IMG/VR virus record: IMGVR_UViG_3300025450_000015 | Span: 32,001-96,000 of that record | DNA length: 64,000 nt | Source: a virus | Direction: 5' to 3' (one strand) | Shown: positions 23,061 to 24,835 of the stretch, one piece after another | How the letters are laid out: each line of letters begins with the position of its first letter | How positions within the stretch are numbered: position 1 is the stretch's first letter | The notes under the pieces: generated by a model | Database searches by the model: none | Seen by the model: the letters and a program-made list of their open reading frames with translations, nothing else | What the model was told of the DNA's origin: nothing | Translations under genes and position numbers: made by a program

Positions 23061-24835
23061 TTATAATAAAAGAACTAACAGTACGTAACTTCATGAGTGT
23101 GGGCAACCAGACTCAAGCTGTAGACTTTGGTAAAGAAAATTTAACACTCGTATTAGGTGAGAATTTAGATCAAGGCGGTGATGATAGCGGAAGTCGTAAC
23201 GGTACAGGTAAGACAACCATTGTAAATGCTTTAAGTTATGCACTTTACGGTATTGCACTCACTAACATTAAAAAAGATAATCTTATCAATAAGATTAACG
23301 CCAAAGGTATGTTGGTTACACTTACATTTGAAAAAAATGGTGTTCTCTATCGTATAGAACGTGGGCGTAAACCTAACATATTAAAGTTTTTTATTGATGA
23401 CCAAGAGCAAGAAACAGACGAAACAGACGATGCTCAAGGAGATATGCGTGAAACCCAGAAGGACTTAGATGACTTGCTGGGCATGAGCCACGATATGTTC
23501 AAACATATTGTTGCTCTTAACACTTATACAGAACCTTTCTTAAGTATGCGGGCTAACGACCAACGTGCTATCATTGAACAGTTGTTGGGTATTACATTAC
23601 TAAGTGAAAAAGCAGAAACTCTTAAAGAACAAGTTAAAGAAACTAAAGATGCTATTACACAAGAGACTGCCAATCTCGAAGCTACAAAGAAAAGCAACGA
23701 AAAAATACAATTAAGTATTGATAGTTTGCTAACCAAACAAATGGCTTGGGGTAATCAACATACTCAAGAGCTAGAAAAGATGGGCAGAGCCATTGTCGAA
23801 TTGGAGGACGTAGATATTGACGCTGAGCTTGCGAAGCATGCGGAGCTCAAAGTGTATGACGAGAAGTCAGCGAAGCTGAAAAGCCTAAATAAAGAGCGTG
23901 CAACGCTCGAAAGTGCGATAGCACAAGCGGAGCGAAGCGTCACGAAGTACGACGGCGAGCTCGTCAAGTTGGCTAACAAGACCTGTCACGCATGTGAACA
24001 AGAGCTACATGATCACAAGCATGAAGAAATGACATCAACAGCACAAGGGCACCTTGACGAGGCCCGAAAGTATTTCGACAAGGTCACTAAGGATTTGTCA
24101 AAAATACAAGCCGAAATTGCTACCCTGGGTGAGCTGACTCAACGTCCTTCAACGTACTATGACAGCGTGGAGCAGACTCTTAAACATCAAAACAACTTAA
24201 AAACTCTTGAAACACAGTTGACTATCAAAGCGGGTGAAACTGATCCGTATCAAGAGCAAATTGAAGAACTGCGTATGACTGCCATGCAGGAAATTTCTTG
24301 GGACTTGGTCAATGAGCTGACTCGCTTGAAGGATCATCAAGAGTTCTTGTTGAAATTGCTGACATCAAAAGATTCATTTATTCGCAAAAAGATTATAGAT
24401 CAAAACCTAGCATACTTAAACAATCGCTTGACCTATTACTTGGACAAGCTGGGGTTACCACACACAGTTACATTCCAAAACGACTTGACGGTCTTAATCA
24501 CACAGCTGGGGCAAGATTTAGATTTTGATAATCTAAGTCGAGGCGAACGCAATAGACTCATACTGGGCTTGTCGTGGGCTTTCCGTGATGTATGGGAAAG
24601 TCTATATCAAAGTATTAATTTGCTGTTTGTTGACGAGCTCATAGACAACGGACTAGATCCTTCAGGAGTAGAAGGTGCCCTGGGCATACTGAAAAAGATG
24701 GGTCGTGAACGCAAGAAAAACATATTCTTGATCAGTCACAAGGAAGAGCTGATAGGCCGTGTAAACAATGTACTGAGAGTTATCAAAGAAAACGGTTTTA
24801 CCAGCTATGCAAACGATTTAGAGATACATGAGTAG
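23057..24835 (+). CDS. gp46: Recombination ATPase gp46 (Rad50/SbcC-like)
   Basis: Walker A NGTGKTT, coiled coil, zinc hook CHAC, signature LSRGE, Walker B LLFVDE, H-loop ISH. Confidence 0.93.
   Translation: MIIIKELTVRNFMSVGNQTQAVDFGKENLTLVLGENLDQGGDDSGSRNGTGKTTIVNALSYALYGIALTNIKKDNLINKINAKGMLVTLTFEKNGVLYRIERGRKPNILKFFIDDQEQETDETDDAQGDMRETQKDLDDLLGMSHDMFKHIVALNTYTEPFLSMRANDQRAIIEQLLGITLLSEKAETLKEQVKETKDAITQETANLEATKKSNEKIQLSIDSLLTKQMAWGNQHTQELEKMGRAIVELEDVDIDAELAKHAELKVYDEKSAKLKSLNKERATLESAIAQAERSVTKYDGELVKLANKTCHACEQELHDHKHEEMTSTAQGHLDEARKYFDKVTKDLSKIQAEIATLGELTQRPSTYYDSVEQTLKHQNNLKTLETQLTIKAGETDPYQEQIEELRMTAMQEISWDLVNELTRLKDHQEFLLKLLTSKDSFIRKKIIDQNLAYLNNRLTYYLDKLGLPHTVTFQNDLTVLITQLGQDLDFDNLSRGERNRLILGLSWAFRDVWESLYQSINLLFVDELIDNGLDPSGVEGALGILKKMGRERKKNIFLISHKEELIGRVNNVLRVIKENGFTSYANDLEIHE
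23825..23965 (+). repeat. Cluster of short inverted repeats with GAA/GCA/GATA loops inside gp46
   Basis: TGC-GAA-GCA (23830-38), TCAGC-GAA-GCTGA (23867-79), GAGCGT-GCA-ACGCTC (23894-908), GTGC-GATA-GCAC (23913-24), GC-GAA-GC (23932-38), AC-GAA-GT (23942-48), GACG..CGTC (23951-65). Confidence 0.75.

Follow-up and report, generated by a model that had tools for sequence, protein, structure and literature searches.

Small DNA hairpins of the types d(GCGAAGC), d(GCGNAGC) and d(GCGNNAGC), described by Hirao and colleagues, have an extraordinary thermal and nuclease stability as folded single strands and contain a sheared G:A pair; the class and its DNA-specific stability have been reviewed (PMC13037366). 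Here we describe a cluster of such mini-hairpins inside the Rad50/SbcC-like gene (T4 gp46 type, hereafter gp46) of a virus from IMG/VR (record IMGVR_UViG_3300025450_000015). The window that we analysed, 64,000 nucleotides in length, comprises bases 32001-96000 of the 153.7-kb virus contig (37.7% GC; GC content at third codon positions, GC3, 0.24), and all positions are given in window coordinates unless stated. The locus shares with the described molecules the exact motif, including d(cGNAg) and d(cGNNAg), with a GC stem, a G..A loop and a closing C:G pair, and an earlier note on this DNA had placed it in the same class; the units of the window match that class, all on one strand. The differences are that these units are chained through shared GC stems, lie within the coding sequence of a double-stranded phage and are known here from sequence alone.

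Hairpins of this class occur at the complementary-strand origins of G4, St-1 and alpha3, at RSF1010 ssiA and at the early promoters of N4 (PMC13037366), where a primase or a polymerase (the virion RNA polymerase of N4) starts on single-stranded DNA. Those origins and promoters belong to single-stranded genomes or use extruded stems of 5-8 bp, and are non-coding, whereas the present DNA is duplex and coding and its conserved stems measure 2-4 bp. The conserved stem of 5-7 bp with a 3-nt loop upstream of early genes that marks an N4 virion RNA polymerase promoter does not occur in the cluster, whose stems of 5-6 bp (23867-79 and 23894-908) are unconserved and intragenic. The second close relation is the ops element, whose non-template strand folds into a C-GGTA-G hairpin within the transcription bubble; RfaH, which reads G5 and T6 of the GGTA loop, needs this hairpin for its recruitment (ops consensus GGCGGTAGnnTG; PMC5995543). 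The ops core, GCGGTAGC, falls in the same motif class, and both elements are small, C:G-closed, bubble-sized hairpins on the non-template strand. Ops acts in cis on the transcribing polymerase, a role that the gp46 element would share by analogy only. The pac sites of P22, SPP1 and P1 lie inside terminase genes and, like the present element, are single-copy DNA signals overprinted on coding sequence with synonymous constraint; they differ in that the gene here is rad50 and not a terminase gene.

The mini-hairpin cluster in gp46

We define a strict mini-hairpin as a closing C:G pair with a G..A loop of 3-4 nt and at least one further pair. By this definition, positions 23822-23968 contain seven mini-hairpins on the + strand, which is the coding strand, and none on the - strand, which bears out the earlier count of about seven between 23825 and 23965, all on the + strand. 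The three exact copies of GCGAAGC reported there are also present, at 23831, 23870 and 23932, all on the + strand. The cluster units comprise three GCGAAGC, two GCGGAGC and one GCGATAGC, six units with two G:C pairs and a G..A loop, and those of the relatives include GCGACAGC and GCGCAAGC. Two pairs of hairpins in the window share a GC stem, so that all seven cannot form simultaneously. The observation that only one other GCGAAGC lies outside the clusters missed a further copy in the window, on the - strand at 27789.

The gp46 cluster is the densest strict mini-hairpin site of the 153.7-kb contig. The contig-wide density is 1.2 per kb on the + strand and 0.9 per kb on the - strand. When 3703 coding segments of 49 codons are compared (mean 0.17 hairpins per segment), 3115 contain none, 529 one, 51 two, 4 three, 2 four, and one each five and seven; every segment with at least four belongs to the gp46 region, and the maximum elsewhere is three. 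No long k-mer of the element recurs in the rest of the contig.

The cluster is also the segment with the highest GC3 of the contig (0.62 vs a mean of 0.24, standard deviation 0.09), and its codons are uncommon elsewhere, as had been noticed: the genome-wide usage is 7% for GCG, 4% for ACG, 9% for CGA, 14% for AGC, 16% for GAG and 21% for AAG. The excess withstands the codon-shuffle control that had been proposed. Codons drawn from genome usage yield 1.1 hairpins with stems of two pairs against the seven observed, and none of 5000 draws reaches seven; permuting the local synonymous codons already yields 3.8-4.3 of the seven (P ~0.01; 0.011). For stems of three pairs, the local permutation gives 0.31 against three observed (0/5000). 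The excess of hairpins is thus mostly due to the rare codons GCG, GAG, AAG, AGC and CGA, and their arrangement contributes a little.

The folding energy of the whole segment is ordinary compared with dinucleotide shuffles (z = -0.6). The TAAATA hexamer in the middle of the cluster, noticed earlier, is present and is not conserved in relatives: the codons for S-L-N-K over it vary freely (CTA for Leu in 11/28, AAT in 14/28 and AAA in 14/28 close relatives), and we rejected it as a late promoter. No sigma-70 promoter was found within the region. As a separate observation, the - strand of 23894-23908, that is, the complement of the 6-bp hairpin, together with TTTATTTA (TTTATTTAGG) scores like an intrinsic terminator in antisense orientation, with the TAAATA box as its T-run. 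The exact form of this hairpin, GAGCGT-GCA-ACGCTC, is found in 3/81 motif-bearing sequences and is nearly specific to the lineage of the window.

The conserved core and its evolution

The nearest named relatives of the gp46-like protein are recombination endonuclease subunits of the jumbo phages PA5oct, Phosso and Atu_ph07, at about 50% identity, and a megablast search against named phages gave no match. IMG/VR contains hundreds of closer environmental relatives, of which we kept 80 (66-100% identity), comprising a close clade of 28 sequences with at least 79% identity and 52 far relatives; the tree was built without codons 251-310. An anchor-based sample, unbiased for the core, added a view of 99 distinct sequences.

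Synonymous conservation across these homologues is confined to the 3' third of the cluster (23903-23947), which we call the core. The idea that a DNA-level signal is hidden in the coding sequence stands as a nucleotide-level signal on one strand, limited to this third; the first two GCGAAGC copies lie in a stretch that evolves at the level of the gene. The protein stretch that carries the signal had been described as tolerant, and we find the reverse: within the coiled coil, SLNKERATLESA.AQAERSV.KY ranks with the better conserved segments. The clade consensus of the core reads GC-GAYA-GC-GCAA-GC-GGA-GC-GAA-GC, a chain of four overlapping mini-hairpins in which each unit shares a GC stem with its neighbour, so that two hairpins at most can form simultaneously. 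The conserved codons are ACG, AGC, GCG, AYA, GCG, CAA, GCG, GAG, CGA and AGC.

In the 28-sequence clade, the proportion of synonymous differences (pS) of codons 282-296 is 0.44, the minimum of the gene (gene-wide 0.77), and the proportion of nonsynonymous differences (pN) is 0.10 against a gene mean of 0.12. As pN is not reduced, a merely young or shallow local genealogy is disfavoured. The residue-adjusted synonymous identity peaks at codons 283-297 at about twice the next best value, and none of 500 permutations reaches this peak. The 28 sequences form one monophyletic clade with long, synonymously saturated branches, and the core is identical across deep ones. Synonymous sites in the stems and at the G and A ends of the loops are fixed; positions immediately flanking the chain are free to vary. 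Codon 288 retains the loop-closing A at its synonymous site, though ATA accounts for only 23% of Ile codons, and the first unit has either C or T as its mid-loop base (ACA or ATA; Thr or Ile). In the lineage of the window, the GCGC-GAYA-GCGC of the others is replaced by GTGC-GATA-GCAC through two synonymous changes that compensate each other.

Could this conservation be a by-product, either of a conserved rare-codon cluster that makes the ribosome pause before the zinc hook or of a GC-rich patch kept by ancestry or recombination? Several results point that way: the tripeptides Ala-Lys/Glu-Leu/His/Arg, written GCG-RAG-C, spell mini-hairpins by chance, and four of the hairpins arise so; local codon permutation returns, besides 4.3 of the seven hairpins of the cluster, 73 of 90 in the core; 8/12 core codons have a usage of at most 16%; and in gp46, conserved parts of the protein tend to be encoded with a higher GC3. 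However, it is the identity of the codons that is conserved. The rare codons of the core show no turnover to other rare synonyms (GCG is kept in 25, 24 and 22/28 sequences at its three positions, CGA in 22/28 and AGC in 24/28), and the variants are common codons, that is, losses. A conserved rare-codon pause is less likely on this account, and codon identity appears to be kept beyond rarity alone. Neither the unreduced pN nor the amino acids, which changed so as to create the motif, nor the new hairpins of the same class that arise elsewhere fit a by-product, and a pause 16-27 codons before the hook would match no domain boundary. We consider this explanation unlikely. The contig has no phage tRNA that would decode the rare codons.

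In far relatives, AT-rich codons for SA[VL]GQAEKT occupy the position of the core, which indicates that amino-acid replacements and a switch of serine codons from TCN to AGC accompanied the origin of the core. Strict hairpins reach 71 per kb within the core for the close clade, against 0 for the 52 far relatives; the corresponding densities are 10.5 and 0.8 per kb for the 5' flank, and both groups have about 1 per kb over the remainder of the gene. From these comparisons, the core appears to have arisen at the base of one freshwater giant-phage clade, partly via replacements that created GCG, CGA and AGC codons, and selection on synonymous sites appears to have kept it in about a hundred related freshwater phages. 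The 99-sequence sample is bimodal, with 47 sequences that have the core and 47 at background. The core has degenerated independently in L006/L027, L016/L003, L017/L037/L040 and L007. Relatives that keep the protein without the hairpins, named earlier as evidence that would speak against a signal, do exist in part: L006, L016, L017, L027 and all 52 distant ones.

The 5' hairpins behave as what are probably weaker satellites that turn over. Both 5' GCGAAGC copies are found in only 8/28 members of the clade, in a stretch whose pS is that of the gene (0.80 vs 0.77), and several lineages carry other hairpins of the same class at different flank positions. The flank hairpins total 29, where local permutation predicts 13.5 and codons drawn gene-wide predict 6.1; such shuffle frequencies overstate significance because the clade sequences are related. 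New hairpins occupy 10 distinct positions in one 33-codon segment of the 5' flank, compared with 0-3 elsewhere outside the cluster. The coordinates of the hairpins and of the neighbouring genes are compiled in Table 1.

Table 1. Position and nature of the features of the gp46 locus in the window.
Feature	Position	Strand	Remarks
Conserved core	codons 283-297, 23903-23947 (45 bases)	+	most invariant 23912-23938, codons 286-294
GTGC-GATA-GCAC	23913-24	+	in conserved core
GCGGAGC	23927-33	+	in conserved core
GCGAAGC	23932-38	+	in conserved core
AC-GAA-GT mini-hairpin	23942-23948	+	in 6/28 close relatives
Satellite hairpin TGC-GAA-GCA	23830-38	+	in 8/28 close relatives; without synonymous constraint
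Satellite hairpin GC-GGA-GC	23840-46	+	in 5/28 close relatives; without synonymous constraint
Satellite hairpin TCAGC-GAA-GCTGA, 5-bp stem	23867-23879	+	GCGAAGC here in 8/28 close relatives
GAGCGT-GCA-ACGCTC, 6-bp stem closed by T:A	23894-23908	+	read from sequence
TAAATA hexamer	23886-23891	+	outside conserved element
Rad50/SbcC-like gene (T4 gp46 type)	23057-24835	+	592 aa; hosts the element; open reading frame (ORF) and translation, Pfam AAA_23 and SMC_N
Zinc hook CHAC	codons 310-313, 23984-23995	+	in Rad50-like gene
gp55-like late sigma gene	21206-22054	+	first of the gp55-47-46 run
Mre11/gp47-like gene	22047-23060	+	between gp55-like and gp46-like genes
Small Arg-rich ORF	24828-25097		follows gp46
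Stand-alone GIY-YIG nuclease, 147 aa	25110-25553	+	Pfam SegE_GIY-YIG; after small Arg-rich ORF

The core is found once per genome. About 97 of the 116 IMG/VR hits of its 16-mer belong to the gp46 clade, one per contig, and the remaining hits are chance matches in unrelated GC-rich DNA, so that we rejected a mobile or multi-context repeat. In a 356-kb relative (G001, 96% complete; the present contig, G000, is 42% complete) the densest GCGNAGC cluster also lies in gp46. Host mimicry, an attP site or a protospacer was likewise discarded, the core 25-mer being absent from 185,579 prokaryote species genomes. An overlapping gene was discarded as well: the antisense ORF 23764-23979 (71 aa) is interrupted in many close relatives, and the sense +1 and +2 frames are short.

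At 23939-23947, most clade members have GTA AAA AAG, which forms an in-frame, dnaX-type -1 slippery heptamer, A_AAA_AAG, with a GGAG 8 nt upstream. A slip there would end after about seven codons, and the window itself has GTC ACG AAG, without the heptamer.

How the core may be read

The core is probably a selected signal at the nucleotide level. Whether it is read as DNA-type hairpins seems to us evenly balanced on the sequence comparisons, and opening of the duplex by transcription is possible, although on the unlikely side. Taken as a whole and with the mechanism included, the interpretation of the cluster as a clade-specific, single-copy nucleotide signal overprinted on Rad50 codons is offered tentatively.

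By this mechanism, the hairpin core on the coding, non-template strand would be read as single-stranded DNA once the duplex opens, an opened duplex being presumably required because stems of two pairs should not extrude from duplex DNA. The most likely opener would be the RNA polymerase that transcribes gp46. A hairpin of 7-8 nt would fit the bubble, and the overlapping units could form one by one as the bubble moves; the hairpins might then pause the polymerase, bring in a factor in the way that ops brings in RfaH, or stabilise an R-loop. The overlapping chain would suit such sequential formation with an advancing bubble, and a static single-strand model would leave the chain unexplained. The consensus core has no T on the non-template strand, which is purine-rich, and the local GC skew is +0.25. 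A purine-rich non-template strand with positive skew is expected to favour R-loops. More specifically, the chain might act as a co-transcriptional single-stranded DNA signal, either for ops-like recruitment without RfaH or as an R-loop lock that primes replication, for which amino acids encoded by rad50 would have been changed; this version we regard as rather doubtful.

Several results weigh against the interpretation just described. The core is dispensable, with at least four independent losses and none present in far relatives. Nearest-neighbour folding detects the 4-bp hairpin only; its parameters miss the stability of mini-hairpins (PMC13037366). The covariation in the first unit amounts to about one event, one unrelated lineage has an uncompensated single change, and the other associations between paired sites resemble haplotype linkage. 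Compared with ops, the core has loops of GAYA, GCAA, GGA and GAA in place of the GGTA recognised by RfaH, and it lies within a gene instead of in a leader. A search for the NusG/RfaH family found no NGN domain in either the present contig or the 356-kb relative. Finally, the messenger RNA (mRNA) is identical in sequence to the non-template strand, which makes a reading at the RNA level a serious rival. A further candidate for covariation, at 23896/23906, was set aside because the association also includes an unpaired neighbour site and looks like haplotype linkage.

In this RNA-level alternative, an element in the gp46 mRNA would be bound by a protein or would tune the translation or decay of the gp55-47-46 transcript, for instance through the 4-bp GCGC-GAYA-GCGC hairpin and five GCG triplets 2-3 nt apart, by a TRAP-like or CsrA-like logic. 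Transcription does yield the element in sense orientation, no stable fold other than the 4-bp hairpin is predicted for RNA or DNA, and the compensatory change keeps that hairpin in RNA too; downstream of gp46 there are also a structured RNA (Polynucleobacter-1, 69.5 bits) and the small Arg-rich ORF. On the other hand, GNA hairpins of two pairs are unstable in RNA and the GAYA loops are not of the GNRA type. No Rfam family matches in 23780-24010 and RNAalifold finds no larger conserved structure (-4.6 kcal/mol only), so that we rejected both a known RNA family and a larger RNA fold, and the type of orf89 is uncorrelated with the presence of the core. We give this alternative a small chance of being right.

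A single-stranded DNA signal in replication, recombination or packaging appears somewhat less probable still. It could serve as a priming site or origin, exclude single-strand-binding protein (SSB), protect a 3' tail from nucleases or load a polymerase or terminase. In its favour, origins in T4 are R-loop based and located in recombination genes. Also consistent with it are the occurrence of the same hairpin class at the origins and promoters cited above, the single copy per genome and the poor binding of SSB by such hairpins (PMC13037366). This is, however, a double-stranded, T4-like jumbo phage, and stems of 2-4 bp are probably too short for extrusion from duplex DNA. The cumulative G-C and A-T skews of the contig have their minima at 21150-21610, 2.3-2.7 kb upstream of the cluster; the skew minimum (21.2-21.6 kb) coincides with a gene-orientation switch, at the divergent promoter region between baseplate genes (-) and gp55-47-46 (+). 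A Pfam search retrieved no single-subunit RNA polymerase of the N4 type, with a search control that was uninformative. Repeated loss, as seen for the core, would be surprising in a sole origin or pac site, and no result specifically favours an origin, priming, packaging or N4-promoter role.

A protein site in duplex DNA is the least probable of all. The GIY-YIG nuclease encoded two genes downstream might, for instance, deliberately nick or cut the DNA there, and gp46/47 would process the break into recombination-dependent replication. T4 EndoII offers a precedent as a stand-alone GIY-YIG nuclease with a 16-bp ambiguous site and breaks processed by gp46/47 (PMC2764454), alike in size and position to the 147-aa nuclease here, and the GIY-YIG gene adjoins gp46 in nearly all 80 relatives; yet the nuclease is present in every relative without the core, no solved structure, that of EndoII among them, matches it detectably by sequence, the repeat spacing (9, 6, 5 and 5 nt) is not helical, and the strand-specific G..A loop rule would go unexplained.

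Cis-acting DNA signals that lie inside coding sequence are difficult to detect, and few have been described for large phages. Mini-hairpin DNA is known as a cis signal; new here are the chained units overprinted on rad50 codons. The gp46 core offers a clear rule (closing C:G, G..A loop, shared GC stems) with about a hundred natural variants, and an evolutionary signature of synonymous constraint, fitted amino acids and repeated losses. If it acts in a bubble or R-loop, non-template hairpin read-out, so far known from ops/RfaH, would reach phage biology, and a natural role of mini-hairpin DNA in a duplex genome would be suggested; even with a modest function, the core is a ready test case for synonymous recoding.

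Neighbourhood and other hairpin sites

The GIY-YIG nuclease that follows gp46 and the small Arg-rich ORF is conserved at this place with 49-89% identity in nearly all 80 relatives, whether or not they have the core, which indicates a resident gene instead of a mobile homing endonuclease and excludes a co-conversion tract as the origin of the core. Directly after it, at 25563-25708 (+), lies a strong match to the Polynucleobacter-1 RNA (Rfam RF01718; gathering score 37). This motif is listed for Burkholderiales and for fresh water and estuary (Weinberg et al. 2010), and the match hints at the habitat and host of the phage. On the 3' side of the structured RNA, at 25882-26010, are found three of the four intergenic C:G-closed, G..A-loop hairpins of the contig with stems of at least 4 bp: one with a 7-bp stem and GCCA, AACGC-GAA-GCGTT on the - strand, and one with an 8-bp stem and GCAA.

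Two further sequences touch the comparison with ops. GGCGGTAGTTTG, at G000:C1:96899-96910 (window coordinate 64899, just past the end), fits the consensus of the ops element and lies on the coding strand of a 4890-aa ORF. GGCGGTAG is found 7 times in the contig, where about 1.4 copies would be expected, and may just encode Gly-Gly-Ser in repeated domains.

Chains of at least two units occur in only two places in the 153.7 kb, both on the + strand. Besides gp46, the other is at G000:C1:151439-151578 (L197:2440-2579), beyond the window, in the spacer between a 2-oxoglutarate (2OG)-Fe(II) oxygenase gene (-) and a DUF6321 gene (+), where CTACGC-GAA-GCGTAG runs into GC-GTA-GC and a GCGAAGC stands 36 nt upstream. 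Relatives of the DUF6321 gene, sought for this second site, were too few. In the 356-kb relative, three different C-GAA-G hairpins occupy the syntenic spacer, so that the type of hairpin is kept there while the stems are replaced.

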